A DNA stretch of 64,000 bases from Actinomycetota bacterium (lineage in GTDB: Bacteria; Actinomycetota; UBA4738; HRBIN12). Positions 1 to 39,572 of the stretch are shown here, one piece after another; position 1 is the first letter of the stretch, and each line of letters opens with the position of its first letter. The notes under the pieces are model-generated. The model searched no databases, was not told the origin of the DNA, and saw only the letters and a program-made list of their open reading frames with translations. Location of the stretch: assembly GCA_005884925.1 (NCBI GenBank), contig VAYU01000001.1:20237-84236 (forward strand), written 5' to 3'. Both the position numbers and the translations under genes were made by a program.

Positions 1-2129
1 GGCTCTGCCTCGGGCGCCTCGACGGTCTTCTTCTTGTCCGCCGACAGCGGCTGCGCCACCTTGCAGTTATCACGGTAGATCGCGACCGCCTTGAGCCCGA
101 GCCGCCAGCTCTCCACGAAGAGCTCCTCGACCTCTTCGACCGTGGCCTCTTCGGGCATGTTCACGGTCTTGGAGATGGCGCCGGAGATGTACGGCTGCGC
201 CGCGGCCATCATCCGCACGTGGCCCATGTAGTGGATGGGCTGCTCCCCCATCGCCGTGTGGAACACCGGGTAGTGCTCGGTCTTGAGATGTGGCGCGTCG
301 GCGACGGAGTTGTGCTCCGCGATGTAAGCCACGATGTCGTCCGTCTGCGCCGCGTCGTACCCCAGCTTCGCGAGCGCGCGCGGGACGGTCTGGTTGACGA
401 ACTGCATCGTGCCGCCGCCGACGAGCTTCTTCGTCTTCACGAGCGCCAGCTCGGGTTCGATGCCGGTGGTGTCGCAGTCCATCATCAGCCCGATCGTGCC
501 GGTCGGAGCCAGCACGCTCGCCTGCGCGTTGCGGTACCCGTGCCGCTCGCCGAGGGCGATCGCCTCGTCCCACGACTGCTTGGCCGCGGAGAGCATCCCC
601 TCGGGCACGAGCTCCGCGTCGATCTGATCCGCCGCCGCGCGGTGCTTGCGCATGACCCGGAGCATCGCGTCGGCGTTGGACGCGTACCCGGCGAAGGGGC
701 CGGTCACCTCCGCGATCCGCGCGCTGGTGCGGTAGGCCCACCCCGTCATGATGGCCGTGATGGCTCCCGCCCAGGCGCGGCCCTGGTCGGAATCGTAAGG
801 GAGCCCGCGGGCCATCAGCAACGCGCCGAGGTTCGCGTAGCCGAGCCCCAGCTGGCGAAAGGCCCGAGCGTTCTCGCCGATCTTGTCGGTCGGATAGTCG
901 GACTCCCCGACCACGATCTCCTGGGCCGTGAAGACGATCTCGGTGGCGTGCCGGAAGCTCCGAACGTCGAAGTTGCCGTCGACGTCGAGGAACTTCATCA
1001 GGTTCAAGCTGGCCAGGTTGCAGGCGCTGTTGTCGAGGTGCATGTACTCGCTGCACGGATTGGAGGCGTTGATCCGGCCGCTCGCCGGGCACGTGTGCCA
1101 CTCGTTGATCGTGGTGTCGTACTGCATCCCGGGGTCCGCGCATTCCCACGCCGCGAGCGCGATGTCGCGCATCAGGTCACGGGCCCGCGTGGTCTCCAAG
1201 GCCTCCCCGGTGGTCACCGCCTTCAGCTTCCAATCGCGGTCCTCCAGGACGGCTTGCATGAACTCATCGGTGACGCGCACGGAGTTGTTGGCGTTCTGGT
1301 ACTGGATGGAGTAGCTGTCGCGGCCGTCCAGGTCCATGTCGAAGCCAGCATCGCGAAGCGCCCGAGCCTTCTTCTCCTCGGTCGCCTTGCACCAGATGAA
1401 GTCGCGAACGTCGGGATGGTCGGCGTCGAGGATGACCATCTTGGCCGCCCGACGCGTCTTGCCGCCCGACTTGATGGTCCCGGCCGAGGCGTCGGCACCC
1501 CGCATGAAGCTGACCGGACCGGAGGCCGTCCCGCCACCCGCGAGGCCCTCCTTCGACGACCGCAGCTTCGTCAGGTTGATGCCGGAGCCCGAGCCGCCCT
1601 TGAAGATGGTCCCCTCTTCCACGTACCAGTTGAGGATCGAGGACATGTGGTCGTCCACCGCGAGGATGAAGCACGCGCTGCACTGCTGCGGCGTGTCGGC
1701 GACGCCGACGTTGAACCACACGGGCGAGTTGAACGCGGCCATCTGGTTCACGAGGAGGTGCGTGAGCTCATCCGCGAAGACCTGTGCGTCGTGCTCGGAG
1801 GCGAAGTACGCGTTCTTGCGACCCCAGCCGGTGATCGTGTCGACCACGCGACCCACGAGCTGCCGTACCGAGGTCTCACGTTGAGGTGTGCCGAGGGTGC
1901 CGCGGAAGTACTTCTGAGCGACGATGTTCGTCGCGTTCTGTGACCACGAGCGGGGGAACTCGACGTCGCGCTGCTCGAAGGCGTTGCCACCCTCCTTGTA
2001 GTTAGGGATCACCGCATCCCTGGTCTCCCATTCGATCCGATCGAACGGATGCGCTCCCTCTTGGGTGAAGAACCGCTTGAAGGTGAGCCCCTCACGGATC
2101 ACCTCGACGTCTCCCTCGCGAGTCGCCAC
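1..2129 (-). CDS. nrdJ: Adenosylcobalamin-dependent (class II) ribonucleoside-diphosphate reductase NrdJ. Partial: the C-terminal part runs off the window start
   Basis: Not in the ORF table, which omits edge-truncated ORFs. My own reverse-complement translation from the GTG at 2129 gives VATREGDVEVIREGLTFKRFF...SPVWFNVG...CSACFILAVDD...GSGSGINLTKLRSSKEGLAGGG, a typical class II RNR N-terminus and active site. A GGAAGGAGGG ribosome-binding site lies 5 nt upstream. It sits directly downstream of nrdR, as in actinobacteria. Confidence 0.85.
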   Translation of the reverse strand, partial: MATREGDVEVIREGLTFKRFFTQEGAHPFDRIEWETRDAVIPNYKEGGNAFEQRDVEFPRSWSQNATNIVAQKYFRGTLGTPQRETSVRQLVGRVVDTITGWGRKNAYFASEHDAQVFADELTHLLVNQMAAFNSPVWFNVGVADTPQQCSACFILAVDDHMSSILNWYVEEGTIFKGGSGSGINLTKLRSSKEGLAGGGTASGPVSFMRGADASAGTIKSGGKTRRAAKMVILDADHPDVRDFIWCKATEEKKARALRDAGFDMDLDGRDSYSIQYQNANNSVRVTDEFMQAVLEDRDWKLKAVTTGEALETTRARDLMRDIALAAWECADPGMQYDTTINEWHTCPASGRINASNPCSEYMHLDNSACNLASLNLMKFLDVDGNFDVRSFRHATEIVFTAQEIVVGESDYPTDKIGENARAFRQLGLGYANLGALLMARGLPYDSDQGRAWAGAITAIMTGWAYRTSARIAEVTGPFAGYASNADAMLRVMRKHRAAADQIDAELVPEGMLSAAKQSWDEAIALGERHGYRNAQASVLAPTGTIGLMMDCDTTGIEPELALVKTKKLVGGGTMQFVNQTVPRALAKLGYDAAQTDDIVAYIAEHNSVADAPHLKTEHYPVFHTAMGEQPIHYMGHVRMMAAAQPYISGAISKTVNMPEEATVEEVEELFVESWRLGLKAVAIYRDNCKVAQPLSADKKKTVEAPEAE

Positions 2130-2139
2130 GTGTTCCCTC

Positions 2140-2172
2140 CTTCCACCGCGGATGAACCCTCAACGGTGTAGT
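2140..2172 (-). promoter_or_regulatory. Conserved motif, copy A (GTTACA-N2-CCTGTCATTCG-N1-GTCTG on the plus strand), in the nrdJ 5' region. It contains the near-palindrome ACAGgtCTGT
   Basis: Almost identical to a second copy at 14941-14970 upstream of recA; seen directly in the sequence. Confidence 0.4.
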
Positions 2173-2256
2173 TACAGACCTGTCATTCGCGTCTGGGCAT
2201 CATGGACCCGACTGCAGCCGACGTCAAGGGGTAGTGGACAGAATCCTTGACGACCG

Positions 2257-2272
2257 CTACATCTAGTATCTC
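2257..2272 (-). promoter_or_regulatory. Putative NrdR box in the nrdR-nrdJ intergenic region (gCTACATCTAGTATCt). A GTAGTGG half-site also lies at about 2232-2238
   Basis: Shares the CTACATCT core with the better box at 2812-2827. NrdR boxes are 16-bp AT-rich palindromes of consensus acaCwAtATaTwGtgt. Confidence 0.35.
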
Positions 2273-2325
2273 GCGGCGATCCCGATCCGACCAACGAACC
2301 GCCCCGGAGGGCCCGTCGGAGGTCC

Positions 2326-2802
2326 CTAGCGGGTCCGCTTCCTGGCCGGCTCCTTCTTCTCGAGCAGCATCCCGAGCTCCCGCTCGAAGTCTGCGGTCCC
2401 CTGGAAGTCCTTGTACACGCTTGCGTACCGGAGGTAGGCCACCTCGTCGACCTTCTGGAGCATGGCGAGGACCTCCCCGCCGACCTGTCGCGATGTCACG
2501 TCGGGTCCCTTGCGGCGCACCCGCGTCTCGATCCGGCCGACCATCTGCTCGATCTGCAACGGCGAGGTCGGTCGACCGGCGAAGGCCTTGCGGATCCCCG
2601 CAGCGAGCTTCTCCCGGTCGAAGGGCTCCGAGCTCCCGTCGCGTTTCGCGACGACCAACCCGACCTCCTCGATCCGCTCGAAGGTCGTGAACCTGCGTCC
2701 GCAGGCGGCGCACTCGCGGCGCCGGCGGATCGACCCGCCGTCGTCGGCCGGACGAGAGTCGACCACGCGGTCGTCGTCGGCCTGGCACCAGGGGCAGCGC
2801 AT
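2326..2802 (-). CDS. nrdR: Transcriptional repressor NrdR
   Basis: ORF 2326..2928 (-); the true start is the internal MRCPWCQADDDRVVDSRP... with the zinc-ribbon CxxC...CxxC and ATP-cone, 158 aa. Same synteny as M. tuberculosis Rv2718c. Confidence 0.9.
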   Translation of the reverse strand: MRCPWCQADDDRVVDSRPADDGGSIRRRRECAACGRRFTTFERIEEVGLVVAKRDGSSEPFDREKLAAGIRKAFAGRPTSPLQIEQMVGRIETRVRRKGPDVTSRQVGGEVLAMLQKVDEVAYLRYASVYKDFQGTADFERELGMLLEKKEPARKRTR

Positions 2803-2811
2803 GGGGATGGG

Positions 2812-2827
2812 CCACAAGATGTAGTGG
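2812..2827 (-). promoter_or_regulatory. Putative NrdR box CCACAAGATGTAGTGG, 10-25 nt upstream of the nrdR start
   Basis: Near-perfect 16-bp palindrome with CAC/GTG arms and an AT-rich centre, matching the NrdR box consensus. Confidence 0.45.
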
Positions 2828-2860
2828 CGGCGCGAACCGTACCCGCAGCATGGTGGAGCG

Positions 2861-3205
2861 TCAACCGCCAGCCGGGACCACGAGGACCTGCCCCGGAACG
2901 AGCGTCCCGGCATCGACCTGATTCGCATCGACGATCGCCTGGACGATCCTTCGGGGGTCGTTCCCGGGAGCGTGCCGGAGGGCGATGCTCCACAACGTGT
3001 CCCCGGGCTGGACGACGTACCGATCCGCGGCGCCCGTCCCGCGAGATGGACGACCGGTCACCGGGGCGGAGACGGCCGGCGCGGAGACCGAGAGCGCGAG
3101 GACCAACAGCCCACCCGCGCCGAGACGTCGGCGGCGTACACGCGTCCGGTTCACGACCTGACCTTGCCCGAACGTCTGTTCGGTGTCAAGGGCAGAATCG
3201 AACAT
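2861..3205 (-). CDS. LysM-domain membrane protein, ChiZ-like (M. tuberculosis Rv2719c-type DNA-damage-inducible cell-wall hydrolase and division inhibitor)
   Basis: ORF 2861..3310 (-); the likely start is [10 protein letters not shown] at 3205. It has an Arg-rich N-terminus, a TM segment ([20 protein letters not shown]) and a C-terminal LysM ([13 protein letters not shown]...IVDANQV). It is divergent from lexA with the SOS boxes in between, exactly the nrdR-chiZ-lexA arrangement of mycobacteria. Confidence 0.7.
3169..3182. promoter_or_regulatory. LexA (SOS) box CGAACGTCTGTTCG
   Basis: Perfect GAAC-N4-GTTC Gram-positive/mycobacterial SOS palindrome in the lexA/chiZ-like divergent region. Confidence 0.7.
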
Positions 3206-3212
3206 ATGTTTG
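3199..3212. promoter_or_regulatory. Second LexA-box-like site CGAACATATGTTTG
   Basis: GAAC-N4-GTTt. It overlaps the start codon of the ChiZ-like gene, about 55 nt upstream of the lexA GTG. Confidence 0.5.
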
Positions 3213-3266
3213 CGTCCCTCTGACCTCGGTGATACCGTCCTGGTCACGAAGAGGAGGGTAGCCACG

Positions 3267-3846
3267 GTGTCTGACATCACTCCCCGGCAGCAGCGGATCG
3301 TGGACTTCATCGCCGAGACCGTGCGCGAGCGCGGCTATCCACCCACCGTTCGCGAGATCGGGGAGGCCGTGGGTCTGACCTCGTCGTCGTCGGTCCACGC
3401 CCAGCTCGCCAACCTCGAACGCGCCGGATTGCTGAAGAAGCGCCGCGGATGCTCGGGTCGAGGCAACGGTCGTGCCCGTGCTCGGCCGCATCGCGGCCGG
3501 CCAGCCCACCCTCGCGAGCGAACATGTCGAGGATTACCTCTCGGTGCCCGCGGAGTTCGTGCGCGGCGGCGATCACTTCGCATTGCGCGTGAGCGGGACG
3601 TCCATGATCGGTGCCGGGATCCTCGACGGAGACGTCGTGGTCGTTCAGAGCCAGGGCTCGGCGAGCGACGGCGACATCGTGGCGGCGCTCCTTCCCGGCC
3701 CCGCCGAGGACGAGGCGACCGTGAAGCGGCTCGGGCACGATGGACCCCGGGTGATGCTGATCCCCGAGAATCTCTCGCTCGAGCCCTTCGAGATGAGCGA
3801 CGGAACGATCTTGGGCAAGGTCGTCGCCGTTCTCAGGCGCCTCTGA
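3267..3846 (+). pseudogene. lexA: LexA repressor, reading frame interrupted by an apparent +1 frameshift near 3440-3450 (authentic pseudogene or sequencing indel)
   Basis: The N-terminal wHTH domain ([60 protein letters not shown]) is in the frame of ORF 3183..4130. The S24 peptidase domain ([12 protein letters not shown]...[17 protein letters not shown]...[10 protein letters not shown]) is in the +1 frame (ORF 3472..3846). The likely true start is the GTG at 3267, preceded by GAGGAGG. Confidence 0.85.
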
Positions 3847-3889
3847 AGTCCGCTAGGCTCCCCGCACTGGATCCCGAGGAGTCTCCCCG

Positions 3890-4906
3890 ATGTCGCGATA
3901 CGCCACGGAGCTCGAACACCAGATCCGCTCGCAGCCCGAACAGCTCGAGCACGTCCTCACGTCCGGCTCCGTCAAGGCGCAGGTCCATGCCGCGGCCGAG
4001 GCCCTCCACCGCGTCCGGCGGATCTGGGTGGTCGGGACCGGCACTAGCCAGCACGCCGCCAACTTGGGGGCGGCGATGCTCCAAGACGCGGGGCGCTCGG
4101 CCCACTCCGTGTCCTCGATGCAGTTCGTGAAGAACGCGCCGATCGTCGGCCCGCAGGACGGGGTCGTGGTCATCACGCACACGGGCGAAACGGCGTACGC
4201 GCTCGCAGCACGCGCGCTCGCCTTCTCGGCGGGACTGCAGACCGTGACGATCTGCCGCGAAGGCTCGGCGTTCAATGACGCGATCCAAACGGTGCCGAAG
4301 GAAACCTCCGAGACCTACACCGTCAGCTACACGACGGCGCTGCTCGCACTCGGCATGCTCGCCTCGGCGATGGGCGCCGACACGATCACGGCCGACAAGC
4401 TCGCGCTCGTCCCCGGCAGCGTCCGGAACGCGATCGAGTCCAACGGAACGGAGTCGGTTCCGCTTCCCGGTCGGATCCTCTCGATCGTCGGGGCGGGGCA
4501 CACCTCGGTCACCGCGCGCGAGGGGGCGCTCAAGGTGCGCGAGGCGGCTCGGGTCCTGGCCGAGGGCTACGACGCGGAATTCTTCCTCCACGGGACGGCG
4601 GTTCCGCTGACCCGGCAGGACCATATCCTTGCCTTGACGACCCCCGACGACGACGGTCTGGTCGAGGGCGTCGCTCGAGCCGCGGAGGCCGAGGGTATCG
4701 GCGTGAGCCGGCTGCCGGAGCCTTCACCGCTCCCCGGGATCCTCGCGCAGATCCCGCTCGTCGCCCGGCTGCATCTCCTGGCGCTCCGCCTCGCGACCCA
4801 GCGCGGGCAGGACCCCGACAAGGTGATCACCGGTCATTGGGACGATCCCGTGCTCTGGTCGATCGGCTCCCCCATGTCGGACCGGCCCCCCGCCAGCGCA
4901 ACGTAG
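3890..4906 (+). CDS. SIS-domain sugar isomerase/deaminase family protein (AgaS/GlmS C-terminal-domain-like)
   Basis: ORF of 338 aa with [11 protein letters not shown] and other tandem SIS motifs. Its 3' end overlaps the convergent hflX by about 73 nt. Confidence 0.65.
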
Positions 4907-13247: not shown

Positions 13248-13757
13248 TCAGTCCTCGAACGCCTCCACCGCAAGCGCCCTGCGAGCTGCCCGTCCCGCGA
13301 CGTCGGGCGCGTAGCCACGACGCGCGAGCATCCCGTAGAGGCGACGATAGGCAGCGTCGGGTTGGAGCGCTGACAGCGTGGCCGCCTTCGCAGCCGCGAG
13401 GGCGTCCGCCCGTTCTTCCTCACCCCCGACGACCTCATCCAGGACCGCCTCCGCGATGTCCTGGGCGATCCCCGCGGTCCTGAGCCGGCCCGCCACGACG
13501 CGACGCCCTTCTTTCCGGGTGGTGAAGGAATGCTCCGCCACCGCCCGGGCGAATGCCTCGTCGTCGATCAGGCCGACCTCGCCCAGCCGGTCCAGCTCCG
13601 CCCGGATCTCCTCGGAGTCGAACCCCGCCCGTCCCAACCGACGCTCGATCTCCCGTCGGCTCCGCTGGCGTACGGCCAGAAGCCCGAGGGCTCGCTCGTG
13701 TATGTCCTTGCGCGTTCCCGGCTTGCCACGGCCGCGGTCGTGCGACACAGGGCTCAC
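13248..13757 (-). CDS. recX: Recombination regulator RecX
   Basis: 169-aa ORF immediately downstream of recA. The GTG start overlaps the recA stop (GTGA). RecX-like helical repeats are present. Confidence 0.8.
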
Positions 13758-14844
13758 TCCTTGGCTGCGGCCGCCGCGGACTTCGTCTTCGTCTCGGACC
13801 CTTCGTCTTCCACGAGATCGGGGACGATCTGGATCGGCTGATCGTCGTCTTCGGAGAAGCCGGTGAGCCCCACCGCCTCGCGAACCTTCCGTTCGATCTC
13901 ATCGCGGAGATCGATGTGCTCCCCGAGGAACGCGCGCGCGTTCTCACGTCCCTGGCCGAGCTGCTCGCCCTCGTAGGTGAACCATGCGCCGGACTTCTTG
14001 ACGATCTCGAGATCGACGCGGTATCGAGGAGGGACCCTGCCTTCGAGATCCCCTTGCCGTACATGATGTCGAACTCACATTGACGGAAGGGGGGCGCGAC
14101 CTTGTTCTTCACGACCTTGACCCGGGTCCGCGAGCCCACGACGTCGGTCCCATCCTTGAGGTTCTCGATCTTGCGCACGTCCAGCCGGACCGACGAGTAG
14201 AACTTGAGCGCTCGTCCCCCGGGGGTGGTCTCGGGTGAGCCGAACATCACACCGATCTTCTCGCGCAACTGGTTGATGAAGATGGCCGTGGTTTCGAACT
14301 TGGAGAGCGACCCGGCGAGCTTCCGCATGGCCTGGGACATGAGGCGCGCCTGCAGGCCGACGTGGGTATCACCCATCTCTCCCTCGATCTCCGCCCGGGG
14401 CACGAGCGCCGCGACCGAGTCGATGACGACGAGATGCATCGCGCCCGAGCGCACCAGCATGTCCGCGATCTCGAGCGCCTGCTCGCCGGAATCGGGCTGA
14501 CTGACCAGGAGCTCGTCGATGTCGACCCCTAGCTCGCGCGCGTACGTCGGATCGAGTGCGTGCTCGGCGTCGATGAACGCCGCGATCCCGCCCTGGCGCT
14601 GTGCTTCCGCGATGATGTGCAGGCACACGGTGGTCTTGCCCGAGCCCTCCGGACCGAAGACCTCGACGATCCTGCCGCGAGGGATGCCGCCGACGCCGAG
14701 CGCGATGTCGAGCGCCAGCGACCCGGTCGGGATGGTGGTCATCCCCACGTTCATGGGGTGCTCGCCCAGTTTCATCACTGCGCCCTTGCCGTGCTGCTTC
14801 TCGATCTGCTGAAGCGTGACCTCCAGCATCTTCTCGCGGTCCAC
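13754..14844 (-). pseudogene. recA: Recombinase RecA, interrupted by an apparent 1-nt deletion near 14016-14020 (authentic pseudogene or sequencing indel)
   Basis: ORF 13435..14937 (-) reads as perfect RecA ([16 protein letters not shown]...[15 protein letters not shown]) and then becomes nonsense. The genuine C-terminus ([31 protein letters not shown]...AAAKE*) is in another frame and ends at 13754. The likely start is the GTG at 14844, preceded by GGAAGGGGGA. Confidence 0.85.
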
Positions 14845-14985: not shown

Positions 14986-15001
14986 TCGAACGCGTGTTCG
15001 A
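14986..15001. promoter_or_regulatory. LexA (SOS) box TCGAACGCGTGTTCGA upstream of recA
   Basis: Perfect 16-bp mycobacterial-type Cheo-box palindrome, about 140 nt upstream of the recA GTG. Confidence 0.65.
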
Positions 15002-24184: not shown

Positions 24185-24661
24185 ATGAAGCAGCTCGAGC
24201 TTCGTCGCCACGCGCCGCGCGATCCCGCCGCAGATCGATTGTCGGAAGCCGGGCGAGCTCGCGCGATGGAGGTCGGCCGGGCGCATCAGGACGTCGCGTA
24301 CGTGGCCGTGTTCGTCTCACCGGCCGAACGTGCGGCGGAGACCGTGGCGTGGTTCCTTCGGGGAGCCGGGCAGCAGCTCCCCCAAGAGCACTCCGTCGTT
24401 CCTGGACTCGCGGGGAAGGATCAGACCGAAGGTTCCCCCGAGGGCATGGCGATCGGGATCCGCTCGTTGCTCGAGCAGCTCCCGGAGGGTGGACGCGGGC
24501 TCGCGATCAGCCACACCCCGTTCGTCGAGCGAGCGGCGCTCGGCCTGACCGGTCACGAGGTGGAACCGATGCGCGAGTGCGAGGGGCTGCTCATCACGCT
24601 GCGCGACGACGGTGACATCGAGATCGAGGAGCTGCGGCTGCCGGGATCCACGGCCGGATGA
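24185..24661 (+). CDS. Histidine-phosphatase-superfamily protein (SixA-like), putative
   Basis: An RHA/RHG-like motif near the N-terminus and an ISHTPF motif; 158 aa. Its stop overlaps the following start (ATGA). Confidence 0.45.
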   Translation: MKQLELRRHAPRDPAADRLSEAGRARAMEVGRAHQDVAYVAVFVSPAERAAETVAWFLRGAGQQLPQEHSVVPGLAGKDQTEGSPEGMAIGIRSLLEQLPEGGRGLAISHTPFVERAALGLTGHEVEPMRECEGLLITLRDDGDIEIEELRLPGSTAG

Positions 24662-25309
24662 GCATCGCGAGTGGCGCGATCGGGGCGGCGTTCGCGCTTG
24701 GCTTCGCGCTGGGCGCAGCCCCCGGGCCGGTGCAACTGTTGATCCTCTCGGAGACGGCGAAGCGCGGGCTCGAGGGCGGTCTGCGCGTGATGCTCGGCGG
24801 GAACCTGACCCTGTTCTGCATCCTGGTCGTCCTCGCGCTGGGGTTCGCGTCCCTCGACCCCGGGCCCGGCGTGATCAGGACGCTGCAGGTGGTGGGTGGC
24901 CTCTTTCCTCGTGTGGATCGGCGGGGCCGAGCTCCGATCGATCCGTCTCGAGGCCCGGCCCTCGGTGGGCGATCCGTCGCCGAGCGCCGGCGGGCGCCTC
25001 GGACCGACCGCGAAAGGCATCGCGTCGGTGCTGCTCAATCCCGGCGCATGGGTCTTCTTCGCGGCGACCGCTTCGGCAGTGATGGCGAAGGCGACCTCCG
25101 ACGGCGGCACGGGCGCGGCGCTCGCGGCCGCGCTCGCGATGGCCGTCGGCGTCAGCTGCTCGGATCTGGCCTTCACCGTCCTCGGGAGCGGTGGACGACG
25201 GTTGTTCGGCGACGGAGGGTTGCTCTGGATCCGGACGGGACTCGCCGTGCTCCTCGTCGTGATCGGCGCCGCGTTCGTGGTCCAGGGGATCGGCGGTCGA
25301 TCGCCGTGA
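24658..25309 (+). pseudogene. LysE/RhtB-family amino-acid exporter, interrupted by an apparent 1-nt insertion in a T-run near 24903-24908
   Basis: The N-terminus (MSIASGAIGAAFALGFALGAAPGPVQLLIL...QVVGGLF) is in frame 1 (ORF 24658..). The rest (LVWIGGAEL...LLNPGAWVFFAATA...) is in frame 2 (ORF 24896..25309). The junction is ctctttcctc. Confidence 0.65.
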
Positions 25310-25317
25310 GTCGGATC

Positions 25318-26082
25318 TCAGCCGTGCGCGAGCAGGGCGTCGAGCCCGACGGTGAGCCCGGGCCGGTTGGCGACCGTGCGGATCGCCAACAGGACCCCCG
25401 GGATGAACGCGCTCCGGTCGATCGTGTCGTGGCGGAGGATCAGGGTCTGGCCCGGGCCTCCGAAGATCACCTCCTGGTGAGCGAGGAGGCCCGGGAGCCG
25501 GATGCCGTGGACGCGGATCCCGTCGACGTCGGCGCCGCGCGCGCCGGGATGCGCGCCGTCGCCGCCGGGCGCTTCCCACACGCCCGCCCGCGCGGCGCCG
25601 ATCCGTTGCGCCGTCGTGATGGCGGTACCGCTCGGCGCATCCACCTTCCGATCGTGATGCAGCTCGATCACCTCGGCCGCATCGAAATGACGAGCGGCCT
25701 CCTCCGCGAACCGCATCAGCAGCGCGGCGCCGATGGCGAAGTTCGGCGCGACGATGGCGTTGGCCTTGCCGGACCCGGTCAGTCGGCCGATCTCCGCGAG
25801 CCCGTCCTCGCCGATCCCGGTCGTGCCGATCACCATGTGCATCCCGCGTTCGAGACACCACCGCGCGTTCTCGATCACGGACCCCGGAGCCGTGAAGTCC
25901 ACGGCCACATCAACGCCTTCGAGCGCGTCCGTGGACCCCGCGACGACGAGGTCGCCGAGCTCCGTCCCTTCGTGATGAGGATCGACCGCCGCGATCAAGC
26001 GGAGGTCGTCGGCGACGTCCACCGCCCGACAGACCTCGCGGCCCATGCGGCCGGCGGCGCCCAGCACGCCGACGCTCGTCAC
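25318..26082 (-). CDS. dapB: 4-hydroxy-tetrahydrodipicolinate reductase DapB
   Basis: VTSVGVLGAAGRMGREV...; 254 aa from the GTG at 26082, which overlaps the M16 peptidase stop (GTGA). The ORF extends spuriously upstream. Confidence 0.85.
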   Translation of the reverse strand: MTSVGVLGAAGRMGREVCRAVDVADDLRLIAAVDPHHEGTELGDLVVAGSTDALEGVDVAVDFTAPGSVIENARWCLERGMHMVIGTTGIGEDGLAEIGRLTGSGKANAIVAPNFAIGAALLMRFAEEAARHFDAAEVIELHHDRKVDAPSGTAITTAQRIGAARAGVWEAPGGDGAHPGARGADVDGIRVHGIRLPGLLAHQEVIFGGPGQTLILRHDTIDRSAFIPGVLLAIRTVANRPGLTVGLDALLAHG

Positions 26083-27341
26083 ACGAGCGCCCCCGCGAAC
26101 GAGGAAGGCTTCACCGGCCCGAGGACCGTCAGCGTCATCGGTTGCGACAGTACCTGGTGGGCGATGCGGCGGGCATCCTCGAGGGACACCCGCTCGACGC
26201 GACGGAGGATCTCGTCCACCGTGAGGATCTCGCCGTTCGCGATCTCGGACTTCCCCAGCCGCGACATCCGGCCGCCGGGGTCTTCCAACGACAGGACGGT
26301 CGAGCCCTTCACGTGACCCTTGGCGCGTTCGAATTCCTCCGCGCTGAGCTCGCCGTCGCGGATCGCTTCGATCTGCGCCCGCATCAACGCGATGACCTCG
26401 CGAGCCTTGCCCGGCGTCGTGCCGGCGTAGGCCGAGAACAGACCGACCTCCGCGAACTGTGAGTGGAAGCTGTACGCCGTGTACGCGAGCCCCCGCTTCT
26501 CGCGGATCTCCTGGAAGAGCCGCGAAGACATCCCGCCCCCGAGCGCCGTGTTGACGATGAGGAACGCGAACCGTTCCGGATCCGATCGCGCCAACCCGTT
26601 CGTCCCGACCACGATGTGCGCCTGCTCCGTCTTCTTCCGTTGCACGTGCTGGTCCCCCGACGGCTTCGGGGCTCGGGGCGTGTCGCGCAACCGCCACATC
26701 GAGCGGCCCCGGGCCGAGAGCTCGCGACCGGCATCCATGCGCTGGGTGAGCATCCGAACCAGATCATCGTGGCGGACGTTGCCGGCCGCCGCGACCACGA
26801 GGCGGCCGGGGACGTAGTGACGGCGATAGAACCCGCGAACGGATCCGCGCGTCGCCGCGCGGATCCGTTCGCGGGTCCCGAGGATCGGCCGCCCGAGCGG
26901 GTGGCCTGGCCACAGGGTCCGCGTGAAGAGATCGTGGACCACGTCTTCCGGAGAGTCGTCGTGCATGTCGATCTCGGACAGGATCACCTGGCTCTCGGCC
27001 GTGAGATCCTCGGTCCGGATCGTCGAGTGCTGCAGCATGTCAGCGAGATGATCGACGGCCAGCTCCAGATCACGGTCGAGCACGCGCGCGTAGTAGCACG
27101 TGTACTCCTTCGCCGTGAACGCGTTGACATCCCCGCCGACCGCATCGAACGCCTCGGCGATGCCGAGGGCCGTGCGCGTCGCGGTCCCCTTGAACAACAG
27201 ATGCTCGAGGAAGTGGCAATGGCCGCTGATCGCGGGACGTTCGTCGAGCACCCAGAAACCGATCGAGACGGAGCGGATGCTTGGCATCCGCTCCGTCACG
27301 ACGCGCAGCCCCGAGCTGAACTCGGTGCGCGAGATCGGCAT
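26079..27341 (-). CDS. M16 family zinc peptidase (PepR-like; Rv2782c-type, adjacent to pnp)
   Basis: HxxEH inverted zinc motif (HCHFLEHLLFKGT); 420 aa from MPISRTEFSSGLRVVTE. The upstream part of ORF 26079..28274 is Arg-rich noise. Confidence 0.8.
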   Translation of the reverse strand: MPISRTEFSSGLRVVTERMPSIRSVSIGFWVLDERPAISGHCHFLEHLLFKGTATRTALGIAEAFDAVGGDVNAFTAKEYTCYYARVLDRDLELAVDHLADMLQHSTIRTEDLTAESQVILSEIDMHDDSPEDVVHDLFTRTLWPGHPLGRPILGTRERIRAATRGSVRGFYRRHYVPGRLVVAAAGNVRHDDLVRMLTQRMDAGRELSARGRSMWRLRDTPRAPKPSGDQHVQRKKTEQAHIVVGTNGLARSDPERFAFLIVNTALGGGMSSRLFQEIREKRGLAYTAYSFHSQFAEVGLFSAYAGTTPGKAREVIALMRAQIEAIRDGELSAEEFERAKGHVKGSTVLSLEDPGGRMSRLGKSEIANGEILTVDEILRRVERVSLEDARRIAHQVLSQPMTLTVLGPVKPSSFAGALV

Positions 27342-27352
27342 GACTCGGGGGT

Positions 27353-29659
27353 TCAGCCGTCCTGGCGGGCACCGCCGCCGTCGCGGAACCGCCGACCGTG
27401 GCGGTCGCCTCGGTCGCCTCGGTCGCCACGCGGGCCGCGATCGCGTCCGCGATCGCCACCTCGATCGCGCCGCTCTCCGGTGGTCTCCACCTGGGTCCCC
27501 TCGGGCACCTCCCATTCGGGGCCGACCGGCTTCAGACTGATCTTGCCCTGCGGATCGACATCTTCGACCAAGACGGTCAGCCGGTCGCCCTCCTTGACCG
27601 CCTCCTCGACGCTCGCGAGCCGTTTCCCGCGCCCCAGCTTCGAGATATGGACGAGTCCATCCCGACCGGGCACGAGGTTCACGAACGCGCCGAACGTCGT
27701 GGTCTTCACCACGGTGCCTTCGTAGGTCTCCCCCACCAAGACCGGCCGCGGGTTGGCGATCTCCTCGATCATGCGGGCGGCCTCGTCGGTACCCTCGGCT
27801 TCGCGCGAGCCGATGAAGACCGTGCCGTCGTCCTCGATGTTGATGTCGGCACCCGTCATCGCGATGATCTCGTTGATCTTCTTCCCCTTCGGCCCGATCA
27901 CCTCGCCGATCTTGTCCACGGGGATCTGGATCGTGATGATCCGCGGTGCCTTGGAGCTGACCTCGTCGCGCGGTGCCGGAAGCGCGGCCAGCATGACCTC
28001 GAGGATCTGCAGCCGCGCCTCCCTCGCCTGCTGGAGCGCACCGGCCAGGACGTCGGCCGGCATCCCCGACACCTTCATGTCGAGCTGGATCGCAGTGACG
28101 AATCCGCTGGTCCCCGCCACCTTGAAGTCCATGTCCCCTAGCGCATCCTCGGCGCCGAGGATGTCGGTGAGCGTCACGAACTGCCCGTCGTCGGCGATCA
28201 TGCCCATCGCGATCCCCGCGACGGGCGCCTTGATCGGGACGCCGGCGTCCATCAACGACAGCGTCGATCCGCACACGCTCGCCATCGAGGTGGAACCGTT
28301 CGAGGCGAGTACGTCCGACACCAGGCGAAGCGCGTACGGGAACTCCTCTTCGCTGGGCACCACCGGGATCAACGCCCGCTCTGCGAGCGCCCCGTGGCCG
28401 ATCTCACGGCGGCGAGGCGAGCCGACCCGGCCCGTCTCGCCCGTCGAGAACGGCGGGAAGTTGTAGTGGTGCATGTAGCGCTTCGAATCCTCGGGGTCGA
28501 GCGTGTCGATCAGCTGCGTCATCCGCAACATGCCGAGCGTGGTGATGTTGAGCACCTGGGTCTCCCCACGCTCGAACAACGCCGAGCCGTGTGCCCGTGG
28601 GACCAGGCCGACCTCGGCCGAGAGCCGCCGGATGTCCTTCGGGCCGCGACCGTCGAGCCGGACGCCCTGGTCGATCACGCGTCGGCGCATGACCTTCTTC
28701 TGGAGGCTCTTCCACGCGGCCGAGAACTCCTGATCGCGCGCTTCGAACGGCGCACCCAGCACCGTGACGAGATGGAGCTTCGCTTCCTCCTTGACCGCAT
28801 CGAAGGCCGCGTCGCGGGCCTGCTTGTCCGGGACGATCGCGGCTTCGAGCTTGCCAGCGAAGTTGGCGTACAGCGTGTCCCAGATGTCCTGACCGTAGAG
28901 CGGTGACGGCGTGAACTCCATCGGCGTCACCCCATGCGCTCTGATGAACTCCTCCTGGAAGGCGACCAGGTGCCCGATCTCCGCCTTCGCGACCTCGAGC
29001 CCTTGCGCGACGATCTCCTCGGTGGGCGCGACGGCTCCCTGACCGGCGCCGAGCAGCGGCCAGATGTTCTCGGGAGCCTCCCCCTCGATCATGAGGATGT
29101 CGACCCCCGCCTGCGCGTTCTTGGCGCCGGCGACGACGATGTCGAAGGTCGCGTCCTCGAGCTCTTGGAAGGTCGGGTTCACGACCCACCCACCACCGAT
29201 CATCCCGAGCCGCACCGCGGCGACGGGTCCGTCGAACGGGAGCCCGGCGAGCCCCACGGCGCATGCCGCCGCGTTCATCGCGGGGATGTCGTAGGGGTTG
29301 GCCATATCCACGGACAAGATCGTGCAGATGACCTGGACCTCGTCGCGGAAGCCCTCCTTGAACGTGGGGCGTAAGGGCCGGTCGATCAAACGAGCCGTGA
29401 GGATCGCGGTCTCTCCCGGCCGGCCTTCCCGCCGGAAGAACGAGCCAGGGATCTTCCCGGCCGCGTACATCCGCTCCTCGACGTCGATCGTGAGCGGGAA
29501 GAAGTCGATCCCCTCTCGGGGCTTCGAGCGGACGCAGGTAGCGAGCACCTGGGTCTGCCCGTACGTAACGACGACGGCTCCGTCGGCGAGCTTCGCGAGC
29601 TTGCCGGCTTCGAACGTCATCTCGTGCGCGCCGACCTGGCGCGACATGGTTGTGACCAT
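27353..29659 (-). CDS. pnp: Polyribonucleotide nucleotidyltransferase (PNPase)
   Basis: Two RNase PH domains plus KH and S1 domains. The start is at MVTTMSRQVGAHEMTFEAGKLAK, preceded by GAGGAGG. Confidence 0.9.
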   Translation of the reverse strand: MVTTMSRQVGAHEMTFEAGKLAKLADGAVVVTYGQTQVLATCVRSKPREGIDFFPLTIDVEERMYAAGKIPGSFFRREGRPGETAILTARLIDRPLRPTFKEGFRDEVQVICTILSVDMANPYDIPAMNAAACAVGLAGLPFDGPVAAVRLGMIGGGWVVNPTFQELEDATFDIVVAGAKNAQAGVDILMIEGEAPENIWPLLGAGQGAVAPTEEIVAQGLEVAKAEIGHLVAFQEEFIRAHGVTPMEFTPSPLYGQDIWDTLYANFAGKLEAAIVPDKQARDAAFDAVKEEAKLHLVTVLGAPFEARDQEFSAAWKSLQKKVMRRRVIDQGVRLDGRGPKDIRRLSAEVGLVPRAHGSALFERGETQVLNITTLGMLRMTQLIDTLDPEDSKRYMHHYNFPPFSTGETGRVGSPRRREIGHGALAERALIPVVPSEEEFPYALRLVSDVLASNGSTSMASVCGSTLSLMDAGVPIKAPVAGIAMGMIADDGQFVTLTDILGAEDALGDMDFKVAGTSGFVTAIQLDMKVSGMPADVLAGALQQAREARLQILEVMLAALPAPRDEVSSKAPRIITIQIPVDKIGEVIGPKGKKINEIIAMTGADINIEDDGTVFIGSREAEGTDEAARMIEEIANPRPVLVGETYEGTVVKTTTFGAFVNLVPGRDGLVHISKLGRGKRLASVEEAVKEGDRLTVLVEDVDPQGKISLKPVGPEWEVPEGTQVETTGERRDRGGDRGRDRGPRGDRGDRGDRHGRRFRDGGGARQDG

Positions 29660-29848
29660 CCGGTCGATCTCCTCCTCGGAGTCAGGGCGCGCCTGTGTCG
29701 CGCCGCATGGTGGTGGAGGGTTCGGGCCGGTTGTCAGTGGTGAACCTCCGGGCGTCGCCGCTGCGGAAGCTCGCGACTGAGAACCGACCGCGCTTCGGGC
29801 CTTCCCTCCTGCGGCCACTCACGTGGTCGTTACGCATCACTCCTTCGG

Positions 29849-29878
29849 GCCGGAGCCGCCGGTGGGCGGCCTCCGGGC
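29849..29878 (-). promoter_or_regulatory. Imperfect GC-rich hairpin just downstream of rpsO, in the pnp leader
   Basis: Inverted repeat GCCCGGAGGCCGCC / GGCGGCTCCGGC on the transcribed strand. rpsO-pnp intergenic hairpins are classic RNase III/PNPase autoregulatory sites. Confidence 0.4.
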
Positions 29879-29883
29879 AGGAT

Positions 29884-30153
29884 CTATCGTCGGAGACCGA
29901 GCTTCGCGACGATCGCGCGATAGCGCTCGATGTCTTCGCGCTTGAGGTACTCCAGCAGCCTCCGCCGGCGCCCAACGAGCATCAAGAGGCCCCGCCGGCT
30001 GTGGTGGTCCTGCTTGTGCAACTTGAGATGCTCGGTGAGGTCGCCGATCCGCCTGGTCAGGACGGCGATCTGCACCTCGGCGGAGCCGGTGTCGCCCGTC
30101 GTGCGGGCATGCTCCTGGATGATCTCGGTCTTGGCTTCTTTGGTCAACGTCAT
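29884..30153 (-). CDS. rpsO: 30S ribosomal protein S15
   Basis: [36 protein letters not shown]...; 89 aa. Confidence 0.95.
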
Positions 30154-30205
30154 GGTCGAACGCCAAGGCTACCAGCGAAAACGGCCCTCCGACCTGCGGC
30201 GACGC

Positions 30206-31144
30206 TCAACCCAGCGCCGCGTCGGGGATCAGCTCACGGGTGCTCGTCACATCCCGCGCGATCGCCGACGCGAGCTCGTCCACGGAATCGTACCGGACCT
30301 CGTCACGCAAACGCGACCAGAACTCGATCGAAAGGGGCTCGCCGGGAAGCTCGCCGTCGAACTCCAGCAGGAACGACTCGACGTGCAGGGGCTCGATGCC
30401 GAAGGTCGGGTTCGTCCCGCAGTCGATCGCGGCTCGGTACCGGCGCGCTCCATGTTCGGCAACGCCGGCGTAGATCCCCTGGCCCGGAAGGAGCAGCCTT
30501 GGCCACGTGCGGAGGTTGGCCGTCGGGTACCCGAGACCTCGACCGCGACCGTGGCCGGTCACGACCTCGCCGTCGAGGACGAATCGGCGGCCGAGAGCGG
30601 CGAGCGGCCACTCGAGATCGCCCGATGCGAGCGCCTCGCGGATCGAGGTCGAGGAGACGACCCGGCCGCCGAGCTCCACGAGGGCGACCGTCTCCACGCC
30701 GAGCCCGTAGGGAGCGGCGAGGGTGGGGAGGGTCCGCATCGTCCCTTCCGCCTTGAACCCGAACGTGAAGTTGGTGCCCATCGCCGCGTGTATCGCATGG
30801 ACGCCGCGGACCAAGACGTCCCGAACGAAGTCCCTGGCGGCGATCAGCGAGAAGTCGCGATCGAAGGTGAGCACGACCAGGACGTCGACCCCCGAGGCGG
30901 CGATCAGCTCCGCCTTCCGTTCGACGGTGGTGAGCAGCCGTGGCTCGCTCCCGGGTGAGAGCACCTCGCGCGGATGCCGGTCGAAGGTGATCGCGACCGA
31001 CCGCACGCCTCGCTCGTCCGCCCGCCGGACGACCGTCCGGAGCACCGCCGCATGACCGAGGTGGACGCCGTCGAAGAACCCGACCGTTGCGACGGATGCC
31101 TCCTCGGCGAGCGGCAGCGAGCGGATCCCATGGACGATGTCCAC
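30206..31144 (-). CDS. ribF: Bifunctional riboflavin kinase/FAD synthetase RibF
   Basis: VDIVHGIRSL...VGFFDGVHLGH... and a C-terminal riboflavin kinase; 312 aa from the GTG at 31144. The ORF extends spuriously upstream. Confidence 0.85.
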   Translation of the reverse strand: MDIVHGIRSLPLAEEASVATVGFFDGVHLGHAAVLRTVVRRADERGVRSVAITFDRHPREVLSPGSEPRLLTTVERKAELIAASGVDVLVVLTFDRDFSLIAARDFVRDVLVRGVHAIHAAMGTNFTFGFKAEGTMRTLPTLAAPYGLGVETVALVELGGRVVSSTSIREALASGDLEWPLAALGRRFVLDGEVVTGHGRGRGLGYPTANLRTWPRLLLPGQGIYAGVAEHGARRYRAAIDCGTNPTFGIEPLHVESFLLEFDGELPGEPLSIEFWSRLRDEVRYDSVDELASAIARDVTSTRELIPDAALG

Positions 31145-31307
31145 GGCCGCAGAGCGTACCCTCCTTGCGTGCCTATCCCGGCCCGTGCCAACCTCGGGCC
31201 GACCGGCCGGGCGGAGGAGGCGTGAAGCGACGACCAGGAGGCGTGACGTTCGCCGAGTTCGACCAGACACTTTGCGGCGCCGACGCACCACCGTGCGAGA
31301 ACTCCGG

Positions 31308-32039
31308 ATGAGCGCGCAACCGCAGATGCTCGCCAACCACCGGCGGGCATTCCTCTGGTCGCTCGCCCTGCTGGCCGGCTGCGTCGCTGCGCTGTTCCTG
31401 GTTGGGCGCCACCCACCCGATGCCGCTCCACTGACGACCGTTCGCTTCGTCGGCAGGTTCGACACCACCACGTACGGCTGGATGGTCGACGTCCGGAACG
31501 CGTGGCTGACGTGGCTCTGCAAGGTGCTGAACGTGATCGGCGGGGGGGTCGTCACGATCCCGGTCCGGATCGCGGCCGTCCTCTTGCTCGCGCTCCGACG
31601 GCGCTGGGCCAGATGCGTTGCCTTCGCGCTAACCTGGGCCAGCAGCGAGATCGTTCTCAACGCGCTGAAGTCGTGGTTCCACCGCGGCCGGCCTCCGTCC
31701 CCCCTCGTGACGACGATCGGGTTCTCGTTCCCGTCCGGTCACGCGGTCGCGGGCGCGGCGACCGCCGTGGCTCTCGTGATCGCCTTCTTCCCCGCGGGCG
31801 AGCAACGCCGCCGGTGGGAGTGGTTGGCGGTCGCGTTCGCATTCGTCATGTCGATGTCGCGCGTCTACCTGGCGGCGCACTGGTTCTCCGACGTGGTGGC
31901 GGGCACGCTCCTCGGTGCGGGCATCGCGGTCTTCTGGGCGGCGACGATCACGGAGTGCCGCGACCTGATCCTCCGGGCCCGTGGGGAGCCGATACCCCGC
32001 GAGGAGGCGCCGGGCGCACCGGTTCAAGCGGGGAAGTAA
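31308..32039 (+). CDS. PAP2-family phosphatase (phosphatidic acid/undecaprenyl-diphosphate phosphatase-like)
   Basis: The three PAP2 motifs (KxxxxxxRP = LKSWFHRGRPP; PSGH = FPSGHAVAG; SRxxxxxHxxxD = SRVYLAAHWFSDV). Internal start MSAQPQMLANH. Confidence 0.7.
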   Translation: MSAQPQMLANHRRAFLWSLALLAGCVAALFLVGRHPPDAAPLTTVRFVGRFDTTTYGWMVDVRNAWLTWLCKVLNVIGGGVVTIPVRIAAVLLLALRRRWARCVAFALTWASSEIVLNALKSWFHRGRPPSPLVTTIGFSFPSGHAVAGAATAVALVIAFFPAGEQRRRWEWLAVAFAFVMSMSRVYLAAHWFSDVVAGTLLGAGIAVFWAATITECRDLILRARGEPIPREEAPGAPVQAGK

Positions 32040-33109
32040 CTCACCCGCTCCCGCTGCGCGGCGACATCGGCGGGGCGTCGCCAGTCCGACTTCACGCGCC
32101 AGATGACGTAGGTGAACCCGCCGATCGGGATCTGGATGCCGTACGTCAGGGCGCGGAACAGCAGCACCGCCGCGACGATCTGCGCCTTCTCGAGCGAATC
32201 GAACGCGGTCAGTCCACCGATGTACCCGAGGTCGATCAGGCCGACCCCACCCGGCGTGATCGGAACCGCCGACAACAACCGGGAGAACGCGAACACGGCG
32301 AACGCCTCCGCGGTCGACACCTCGTGTTCGGAGACCCCCATGTGCCGGAGCGAGAGCAACAGCACGAAGAAGAGCGCCAGCTGGCTCAGCACCGTGAACA
32401 ACGTCAACCGGATCCATCGGTACCGAACCAGGGCGATCGTGTCTCGGCGGAACCGAGCCGCACCCTCGCCCCAGCCCGTGACGGGGGGTTTGCGGAAGAG
32501 GGCACGGAGTCTGGAGACAACACGTGCAAGCGCGTTGCCGATCCGGATCGCGAACGTCTCGCTCCGGAAGAGGAGCGCGAACAGCACCACCGCGGCGCCG
32601 AGGAACGCGAGACCGACGACGGCAGCCACGATGTACGCTGGGGTCAGGTGCCCGCTGAGCGCGAGGAACACCAGCGCGAGCATCGGCAGCCCGAGCTTCG
32701 TGAAGATGTTCCAGATGCCGGTCACGCCGACGTACAGCGCGACGTTCGTCCCGGTGAACCCCCACGAGTCCAGGATCGAGTACGTCAGCCCGATCGCGAT
32801 CGCACCGCCGGCGGGGAGCGTGTTCGCGACCGACGTCGTCGTCTGCGTGAGGACCGCGGCCTTGCCGATGCCCATGCCCGGCAGGGCCGCCTGGTTCGCC
32901 CACCAGTAGGTCACGAGGTTGAAGATCGTCGCGGCGACCAGCGACCAGAACTCGAGCGGCGTCAGCGTCCCGATCGCGGAGGCGACGTCGTGGTAATCGG
33001 CGTACTTCGGGATCGCCCAGGCGAAGATCGCGACCACGATGGCGACGGAGATGACGTAGCCGACGATCCGCTTCCAGGTCAGACGGGTGCGAGGCTTCGG
33101 TTCGGGCAT
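32024..33109 (-). CDS. Flippase-like (UPF0104/MprF C-terminal-like) integral membrane protein
   Basis: Multi-TM protein. Internal start MPEPKPRTRLTWKRIVGYVISVAIVV. Its 3' end overlaps the convergent PAP2 gene by 16 nt. Confidence 0.55.
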   Translation of the reverse strand: MPEPKPRTRLTWKRIVGYVISVAIVVAIFAWAIPKYADYHDVASAIGTLTPLEFWSLVAATIFNLVTYWWANQAALPGMGIGKAAVLTQTTTSVANTLPAGGAIAIGLTYSILDSWGFTGTNVALYVGVTGIWNIFTKLGLPMLALVFLALSGHLTPAYIVAAVVGLAFLGAAVVLFALLFRSETFAIRIGNALARVVSRLRALFRKPPVTGWGEGAARFRRDTIALVRYRWIRLTLFTVLSQLALFFVLLLSLRHMGVSEHEVSTAEAFAVFAFSRLLSAVPITPGGVGLIDLGYIGGLTAFDSLEKAQIVAAVLLFRALTYGIQIPIGGFTYVIWRVKSDWRRPADVAAQRERVSYFPA

Positions 33110-33120
33110 GGCTGCTGAGC

Positions 33121-33978
33121 CTACCCCAGCCGGGCGAGCACCATCTCCGGGCGGGCCTTGGGCCCGTCGTCGCGATAGATGGCGACCAAGGATCCGTCCG
33201 GATCGAACACCCCGTAGGGCCCCTCGATCCCGGCCGGCCCCAGGATGCTCCCGTGTCGCGCGACCCGCGCCTCCTCGGGCTCGAGCTCGAAGCGGGGAAG
33301 GTGCGCGACGGCCCGCTCGATCGGGAGGAGATCTCCGGCCTCGTCCGGGGGCTTCGCGTCGTCGACGGCGAACGAACCGATCGCGGTCCGTCGCAGGCTT
33401 GTGAGGTGCGCACCGCACCCGAGCGCGGACCCGACGTCGGCGGCGAGGACGCGGACGTACGTGCCGCCGCTCACCATGGCGACGAAATCGACGTCCACGC
33501 CGTTCCGTGCGAGCAAGTCGAATCGGTCGACCCGGACCGTGCGTGGCGCCGCGCGGAGCTCTTCGCCCCGCCGCGCCGCGTCGTACAGCTTGCGGCCGCC
33601 AACCTTCGCCGCACTGAACGCCGGCGGCGCCTGCAGCGACTCGCCGAGCTTGGCCGCCATCGCCCGCGCGACGTCGGCGTCCGTCGCAGCGACCGGCGAC
33701 TCCCGCGTGATATCTCCCTCCGCGTCGAGCGTGTCCGTCTCCACCCCGAGCCGGAAGGTCCCTTCATAGGTCTTCGGGAGGTCGCCGAGGAACCGGAGCA
33801 GCCGGGTGGCTCGACCCAATCCGAGGACCAGGAGCCCGGTCGCCATGGGGTCGAGCGTCCCCGCGTGGCCGACCTTCTTTGCCCGGGTGGTCCGTCGGAC
33901 GATGGCGACGGCATCGTGCGACGTGATCCCCGCCGGTTTGTCGATCAACAGCAGGCCTTCGGCCGGCGGCGGGCTCAC
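33121..33978 (-). CDS. truB: tRNA pseudouridine(55) synthase TruB
   Basis: LLLIDKPAGITSHD...GHAGTLDPMATGLL; 285 aa. Confidence 0.9.
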   Translation of the reverse strand: MSPPPAEGLLLIDKPAGITSHDAVAIVRRTTRAKKVGHAGTLDPMATGLLVLGLGRATRLLRFLGDLPKTYEGTFRLGVETDTLDAEGDITRESPVAATDADVARAMAAKLGESLQAPPAFSAAKVGGRKLYDAARRGEELRAAPRTVRVDRFDLLARNGVDVDFVAMVSGGTYVRVLAADVGSALGCGAHLTSLRRTAIGSFAVDDAKPPDEAGDLLPIERAVAHLPRFELEPEEARVARHGSILGPAGIEGPYGVFDPDGSLVAIYRDDGPKARPEMVLARLG

Positions 33979-34958: not shown

Positions 34959-35313
34959 GCGAAGCCCCTTCCTCGTGATGCAACTGATCGAGGATCCGGT
35001 CGATCCGCTGGCCGGTCGCGAGCGTGTCGTCCTCCTCGAACCGAAGCTCGGGGACGACCTTGAGTCGGATCTGCCGCCCCAACTCGTGCCGGAGGTGGGG
35101 CGTCGCGGACCGTAGCGCCGCCCGGGAGCCGGCTTTGGCCGCGGCGTCGCCGAACACCGTGAAGTAGACCCACGCGACCCGCAGATCGTGGGACACCTTG
35201 ACGCCCGTGATCGTGACGAACCCGATCCTCGGGTCCTTCAGCTTCTGGATCGCCTCGGCGAGGATCTCTCGGAACCCCTCGCCGACCCGTTCCGCTCGGG
35301 GTCCTTGCGGCAT
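34948..35313 (-). CDS. rbfA: Ribosome-binding factor A
   Basis: 121 aa; KH-like RbfA signature. Sits in the conserved nusA-infB-rbfA-truB cluster. Confidence 0.9.
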   Translation of the reverse strand: MPQGPRAERVGEGFREILAEAIQKLKDPRIGFVTITGVKVSHDLRVAWVYFTVFGDAAAKAGSRAALRSATPHLRHELGRQIRLKVVPELRFEEDDTLATGQRIDRILDQLHHEEGASHDA

Positions 35314-35336
35314 GGGACCAGCGTACCCGGCGTCTC

Positions 35337-35630: not shown

Positions 35631-35637
35631 GGCCGGC

Positions 35638-38027: not shown

Positions 38028-38031
38028 CGGC

Positions 38032-39548: not shown

Positions 39549-39572
39549 CCGACCATCCCCCTACAAACGAAA

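Follow-up and report, generated by a model that had tools for sequence, protein, structure and literature searches.

The 64-kb stretch of DNA considered here, which we call the window, carries lexA divergent from a LysM gene and nrdR, with two SOS boxes in the promoter between them and a gene for a SIS-domain protein (3890-4906) downstream. The lexA coding sequence is split between two reading frames (Table 1). Codons 1-58 follow directly from the start codon, residues 69-202 lie in another frame, and a tblastn search of the window with an intact LexA query places the break exactly at 3440/3442. The 5′ and 3′ parts share 100% and 99% identity with residues 1-58 and 69-202 of intact LexA, respectively. 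The Pfam model PF01726 (LexA_DNA_bind) matches the 5′ piece at residues 2-61, which correspond to positions 2-61 of the 65 in the model (E 4.6e-20), and PF00717 (Peptidase_S24) is complete in the 3′ piece (positions 1-116 of 116, E 7.5e-29). The two pieces, when joined artificially, score 187 bits as LexA against a TIGR00498 cutoff of 111, and the best matches of the window LexA to solved structures are LexA proteins. A tblastn search found no second copy of lexA within the 64-kb window.

Translation from the lexA start codon yields 58 native residues fused to approximately 230 out-of-frame residues. This product of GTG 3267 begins VSDITPRQQ and later becomes arginine-rich; its frame remains open to 4130 and thereby enters the downstream SIS-domain gene by 240 nt. 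No Pfam domain is recognized past residue 61. A residual ORF of 124 codons with a GTG start lies within the 3′ part and is a candidate for a free S24 domain. An exact look-up of its product in the assembly collection returned nothing.

An earlier note on this DNA had described lexA as split between frames at about 3440 with both domains intact, and the translations, Pfam matches and tblastn alignment bear out the split. The S24 domain is indeed complete, but the wHTH domain is without its last 10 residues and the terminal 'RR' quoted for it is an out-of-frame reading of downstream DNA. The note attributed the break to a +1, single-base event in a GC run, such that removal of one base would give a normal LexA in an ORF of 230 aa. 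The lesion is instead a 29-bp deletion with respect to all relatives, without microhomology; a one-base repair gives a protein of approximately 193 aa that lacks DPTKPRAMTL, and the intact ORF is 202 aa.

Table 1. Features and small differences discussed in the text, with positions in the window.
Feature	Position	Strand	Description	Basis
lexA 5′ part	3267..3440	+	GTG start, codons 1-58, wHTH helices to ...AGLLKK	Translation, Pfam, tblastn
Deletion junction	3440..3441	+	29 nt GATCCGACGAAGCCACGCGCGATGACGCT of all relatives absent between both bases; lexA coding, frameshift	
lexA 3′ part	3442..3846	+	Frame +1; A69-L202 (3442-3843) and stop (3844-3846); linker, cleavage site, catalytic residues	Translation, Pfam, tblastn
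Arg-rich out-of-frame tail	3441..4130	+	Now read from the lexA start	ORF 3183-4130, translation
Residual 124-aa ORF	3472..3846	+	GTG start, GAGG 8 nt upstream; candidate free S24 domain	ORF list, sequence
Distal SOS box	3169..3182	.	CGAACGTCTGTTCG; upstream of lexA; perfect CGAACN4GTTCG	
Proximal SOS box	3199..3212	.	CGAACATATGTTTG; upstream of lexA; one mismatch to palindromic consensus	
recA SOS box	14987..15000	.	CGAACGCGTGTTCG; upstream of recA; perfect CGAACN4GTTCG	
recA, frameshifted	13754..14844	-	Start GTG 14844, stop 13754-13756	ORF list, three-frame translations, Pfam
recA 1-nt deletion	14018..14020	-	GG to G at ~14019; ACCGGCGTC in relatives, ACCGCGTC in window; coding, frameshift	Alignment and blastn against L096, L097, L098
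LysE-family transporter gene	24658-25309	+	Split by +1 insertion (extra T at ~24905, CTCTTTCC)	Frame scan, relatives, Pfam
Indel	~27240		12 nt; coding, in frame	
Indel	~3190		1 nt; intergenic	
Indel	~23588		1 nt; intergenic	
Indel	~29880		1 nt; intergenic	
Indel	~54950		1 nt (compensating pair); intergenic	

The earlier note had both nearby SOS boxes perfectly conserved. This applies to the distal box; the proximal box carries one mismatch to the consensus. Perfect CGAACN4GTTCG sequences occur at two places only in the 64-kb window, the distal box and the box upstream of recA. A perfect box is found at the same distance from lexA (-98/-99) in the five closest metagenome-assembled genomes (MAGs), and two to three boxes lie upstream of lexA in 79 of the 80 related MAGs described below. 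The proximal 14-mer, mismatch included, is identical in 12 of 12 related MAGs among the matches listed, and judged by these matches the mismatch is the conserved native form. One attribute of a functional LexA, control of its own expression by way of SOS boxes, is therefore represented at the sequence level by predicted operators. Intact boxes are uninformative as to whether the lesion is authentic because the event is so recent.

The 29-nucleotide deletion

An exact search with the proteins encoded on either side of lexA, NrdR and the SIS protein, returned near-identical metagenome contigs from several studies. Nine near-identical contigs, from seven samples, share approximately 92-99.9% nucleotide identity with the window over the aligned stretches. 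Alignments with six of them (L001, L002, L003, L004, L005 and L006) show that the window is without exactly 29 nt, and blastn against L014 and L015 reveals the same gap; L009 carries a match to the intact form in a gapped pattern scan. A complete lexA of 202 aa is called on L001, L002, L004, L005, L006 and L014, and the 29 nt are also present in L003, L009 and L015. These close relatives have a single lexA in a conserved nrdR-LysM-lexA-SIS context. Outside the gap the window lexA is identical to that of L006 and the flanks of the deletion show no decay; if the event is biological at all, it must have happened extremely recently.

The gap cannot be moved to the left or to the right, which means that there is no microhomology and that the breakpoints are uniquely placed. 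In the window AAGAAG is followed directly by CGCCGC, within the junction 30-mer GATTGCTGAAGAAGCGCCGCGGATGCTCGG; the form with the 29 nt contains GAAGAAGGATCCGACGAAGCC. Since 29 = 3n+2 the change of frame appears as '+1'. Replication slippage or repeat collapse was rejected as the origin of the junction, since the breakpoints are fixed in position and share no microhomology. A deletion or PCR jump mediated by a hairpin was likewise set aside, as the DNA at this site and at the recA site described below folds, on both strands, no more stably than shuffled sequence (z +0.1 to +1.5). We note that the left breakpoint coincides with the cleavage position of GGATCC in L001 (AAG^GATCC; BamHI-type, also ^GATC). 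The right breakpoint has no matching site; a restriction-site origin of the junction was rejected for that reason and the coincidence is probably fortuitous.

The earlier note had also asked whether close relatives have an intact lexA, and they do, not only in the nine contigs. A scan of species-representative genomes gave 247 stretches encoding a LexA relative, of which the best 80 were used; all are MAGs, nearly all labelled Actinomycetota or Actinomycetes. In all 80 lexA is intact, with no frameshift. When MAG loci and contigs are taken together, tblastn gives a single full-length alignment at 89 of 94 loci. Of the other five, two are copies of a single contig that is truncated at its end, and three are MAG loci that align from residue 5. 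One MAG, MFD02242.bin.2.325, has lexA on two large contigs, L041 and L043 (CAWFJH010000001.1 and CAWFJH010000005.1), either as two copies or as the result of a mixed bin.

The 29-nt gap was seen in the window alone among the sequences compared. A gapped pattern able to match either allele had no match in GTDB genomes; in JGI metagenomes it matched two alleles, both intact, with no example of the deletion form. A protein search with intact LexA returned only full-length two-domain proteins among the best 120 listed.

What would be expected of a functional LexA, and how does the window compare? Is the N-terminal winged-helix DNA-binding domain complete? Do this domain and the S24 domain occur in one polypeptide? 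Are the Ala-Gly cleavage site and the Ser/Lys dyad present? The DNA-binding domain is incomplete; the match to PF01726 stops at position 61 of 65, and the deletion removes D59-L68 (DPTKPRAMTL) as well as shifting the frame. D59, K62, P63, R64 and L68 are conserved in all of the best 80 of the 247 relatives, and A65 in 79 of these 80. The lost segment aligns to residues 59-68 of Escherichia coli LexA, which we take to be the turn or tip and the second strand of the wing in the winged helix (structures 1LEA and 3JSO). The two domains are in frames 0 and +1, not in one polypeptide. The cleavage site and dyad are retained, but solely in the orphaned 3′ frame, where RIAAGQP, VSGTSM and ATVKRL align to E. 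coli A84-G85, S119 and K156, that is the cleavage site, catalytic serine and lysine. Their preservation is as expected for a very recent event. As the lesion is a 29-bp deletion with uniquely placed breakpoints that also removes ten nearly invariant residues, a homopolymer-type sequencing error is unlikely and no simple correction of the frame restores function. With intact orthologues in close relatives and a private disabling lesion, the window lexA has the attributes of a pseudogene.

A frameshift in recA and the quality of the window

A second lesion lies 10.6 kb away on the same contiguous sequence. The start of recA is fixed by the gene call in a relative, and the ATPase core and RecA_C domain of the window gene occur in different frames (Pfam RecA 1-262 of 262 in the N-terminal part, RecA_C in the C-terminal part). 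Three near-identical contigs, L096, L097 and L098, are intact at the site, where the window has lost one of two G residues; the forms set against each other are ACCGCGTCGATC and ACCGGCGTCGATC. Approximately 20 nt upstream within the gene there is a private A-to-C SNP at 14039, changing glutamate to alanine. The site consists of GGC and then a perfect 14-nt palindrome, CGATCTCGAGATCG, with CCGGCG direct repeats flanking. Two further contigs, L010 and L099, terminate exactly at window position 14018. A SNP and an indel within about 20 nt, at a place where two assemblies break, could mark a technically difficult site.

No copy of the frameshifted recA allele of the window was found. An exact look-up of the 469-aa frameshifted RecA returned nothing, and in a protein search no match covers the aberrant tail. 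That search did turn up P0011, a 442-aa RecA without RecA_C encoded on contig L106 (JGI 3300028811, Ga0307292_10004647; 2069-3397). Here recA has a frameshifting 35-nt deletion, equivalent to approximately 13984-14019 of the window, with the junction GATACCGTGGTTCACC; its left breakpoint, GATACCG^, is the same as that of the 1-nt deletion. L106 represents a slightly different strain from a different metagenome. From these sequences the region near 14019 may be prone to deletion, may be polymorphic or may present technical difficulties. Elsewhere, several related MAGs have 'RecA-RecX' fusion calls of 544-606 aa (P0022, P0074, P0105 and P0108) on contigs of 158 kb to 1 Mb, and in P0022 a change of frame near the 3′ end of recA runs into recX. 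These fusions have the appearance of frameshifts that arose when long-read MAGs were assembled.

For 40.3 kb of the window (1-27344, 29607-39612 and 51983-54959) independent contigs of at least 97% identity were available for comparison. Over this length there are only two private frame-breaking differences, in lexA and recA. The other four sites of single-base indels are all intergenic, and the sole other coding indel is of 12 nt and in frame. Since approximately 90% of the DNA is coding, random consensus errors would mostly strike genes; small indels that avoid genes are, on this sequence comparison, the signature of real polymorphism filtered by selection and not of random consensus error. 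The suggestion that the window is simply error-ridden was rejected over the 40.3 kb compared, and the frame scan of the remainder gives it no support.

This codon-usage Viterbi scan, over all 64 kb, flags lexA, recA and a LysE-family gene only. The LysE frameshift is common to two independent assemblies, L100 and L101, both of which call only a 137-aa C-terminal piece; the repaired protein matches Pfam LysE at positions 3-192 of 193. On the strength of the shared sequence we regard this frameshift as a genuine, population-level pseudogene, and real pseudogenes therefore exist in this population. The 12-nt in-frame deletion is in an ORF on the minus strand (26080-27357) and was seen with respect to L100 (GGGACGCTCGTCCCGCGATCCCGCGAGC against GGGACGTTCGTCGAGC), the one relative that covers the site. 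In L004 (CRIT18-1 scaffold_48265) there is a discontinuity of about 100 nt at approximately 2744-2845, inside hflX, with respect to the window; the hflX call is 294 aa and not 456. A gap in the scaffold or a local misassembly of that contig may be the cause.

Loss of the SOS regulators or a local artefact

Neither LexA nor RecA is encoded in intact form by the window sequence. On balance we think it probable, with modest confidence in a reading of sequence, that this represents a very recent and genuine loss of both SOS regulators, the lexA of the window being a loss-of-function allele. In the sequence, the 29-bp deletion removes ten residues and shifts the frame, leaving the S24 dimerization and autoprotease domain without an evident translation start of its own, and the 1-nt deletion cuts recA between the ATPase core and the C-terminal domain. 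Because both the DNA-binding fold and its link to the dimerization domain are lost, there would be no functional LexA repressor; with no LexA bound to the intact SOS boxes at lexA, recA and elsewhere, the LexA regulon would in consequence be expressed constitutively. The cell would further be deprived of recombination and co-protease signalling that depend on RecA, and the RecA-LexA switch would thus be dismantled, not just locked on. The earlier note was right to ask whether the lesion is an artefact or real, but it had missed the recA frameshift, and the constitutive SOS phenotype it proposed is replaced here by a dismantled SOS circuit.

The two lesions might be functionally linked, in that loss of one regulator could make loss of the other neutral or beneficial. 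Repair genes might, for example, be derepressed in a cell without recA, or constitutive SOS might be made less costly. The chance that a second private lesion falls in recA, which accounts for approximately 1.1 kb of the ~40 kb compared, is about 0.03, and this low figure suggests epistasis between loss of lexA and of recA with the caveat that it is a post-hoc estimate. Deletion of lexA or recA is tolerated by Streptomyces venezuelae, though at the cost of severe growth and sporulation defects (PMC9380542), and in mycobacteria a PafBC damage-response pathway independent of LexA and RecA is described (PMC8151990, PMC6789036). By analogy the viability of an SOS-less cell is plausible; it would depend on the RecA/LexA-independent damage responses known in Actinobacteria.

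Could the gaps instead have arisen during assembly, polishing, binning or the making of a consensus from a strain-mixed metagenome, with lexA and recA intact in the organism, or could rare chimeric or PCR-jump molecules have been chosen as the consensus path? We consider a local artefact of this kind rather unlikely, though it has a substantial claim to attention. The lexA deletion was seen in no other assembly searched, no record was found of the proteins expected from the two broken genes, the window alone among near-identical contigs has the allele and no decay surrounds it. At the recA site, beside the palindrome, two contigs end and L106 has a different deletion, and the frameshift-type RecA-RecX fusion P0022, together with others that are similarly over-long, indicates that assembly frameshifts do occur in the clade. 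Against this, a de Bruijn assembler cannot create the lexA junction by repeat collapse, since a 29-nt gap with zero microhomology cannot arise from the collapse of k-mers, and 29 missing nucleotides are not a homopolymer-type error. We know of no systematic error of short-read or long-read consensus that would produce such a gap. Neither the 40.3 kb compared nor the frame scan contains random coding frameshifts elsewhere, and single-base indels are otherwise confined to intergenic DNA. Hairpins that make a polymerase jump are an unlikely cause, as the folds at both sites are no more stable than those of shuffles, and it would be coincidental for two errors to strike both genes of a single circuit (the estimate of ~0.03 given above). 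The independent recA frameshift of L106, with its shared left breakpoint in a different strain and metagenome, supports a real loss.

It is also conceivable, though improbable in our judgement, that the deletion exists in nature only as a minority or hitchhiking allele, or that the lost function is supplied elsewhere, such that the organism is not SOS-deficient. The two lesions might then come from separate cells in a mixed population, or another, intact lexA or recA might lie outside the window. A metagenome consensus can mix strains, MFD02242.bin.2.325 does show lexA on two contigs and our view is limited to 64 kb of the genome; but tblastn found no second lexA in the window, close relatives have a single lexA in the same gene context, and both lesions are on one contiguous sequence. 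We attach almost no probability to the idea that lexA is normal apart from a single-base sequencing indel at 3440-3450 or a programmed +1 frameshift. The two frames do differ by one position, but relatives show that 29 bases are missing and not one, which led us to reject both. The one-base 'repair' lacks the ten nearly invariant residues, and coverage of the DNA-binding model by Pfam still stops before the model ends. As for programmed ribosomal frameshifting, none of the 80 relatives uses it at this place and the shifted product would still be without the ten residues.

A broader form of the preferred reading, a genuine loss, is that this uncultured soil actinobacterium repeatedly discards the RecA-LexA switch in its natural populations, with a recA deletion hotspot at GATACCG^G, where the sequences for the core and the C-terminal domain adjoin, loss of lexA before or after, and selection as the driver in place of error or drift. 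We regard this extension as doubtful. The hotspot would be represented by the 1-nt deletion of the window, the 35-nt deletion of L106 and the contig breaks in two more samples. Repeated loss could give rise to SOS-less ecotypes that use other damage responses, the selection being, for example, against prophage induction or the costs of SOS mutagenesis.

The gene resembles canonical LexA (TIGR00498; E. coli LexA, PDB codes 3JSO and 1JHH; Thermotoga LexA, 3K2Z) in gene, context and operators, including the LexA_DNA_bind region, Ala-Gly site, Ser/Lys S24 domain and autoregulatory SOS boxes. It differs in the broken frame and in missing the residues equivalent to E. coli 59-68, and for these reasons cannot act as a functional LexA. 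The predicted outcome, no repressor and a constitutively derepressed LexA regulon, is that of E. coli lexA(Def) and the S. venezuelae lexA deletion. Those alleles are engineered or selected, whereas the window allele is a spontaneous 29-bp deletion in an environmental sequence, accompanied by a recA frameshift and known from sequence alone. Ordinary small-deletion pseudogenes likewise have intact orthologues in close relatives, a single disabling lesion and no further decay. Here, in contrast, the targets are two master regulators of one pathway in an apparently free-living soil bacterium, and a different strain carries an independent recA deletion that starts at this same nucleotide. Loss-of-function alleles of well-studied genes are familiar; what is unusual is the double lesion on one circuit and the recurrent site of deletion in recA.

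In either case the one-base picture of this locus is replaced by a precise 29-bp junction. If the lesions are artefacts they serve as a warning that behind a 'frameshift' seen in just one consensus there can be a deletion of greater length, and that near-identical assemblies should be compared before physiology is inferred. If both are real and in one cell, the window represents a soil actinobacterium caught just after losing both SOS master regulators. It would then offer a natural test of the dispensability of RecA-LexA where alternative damage responses exist, and would direct attention to a possible hotspot for deletions in recA among populations in the wild.
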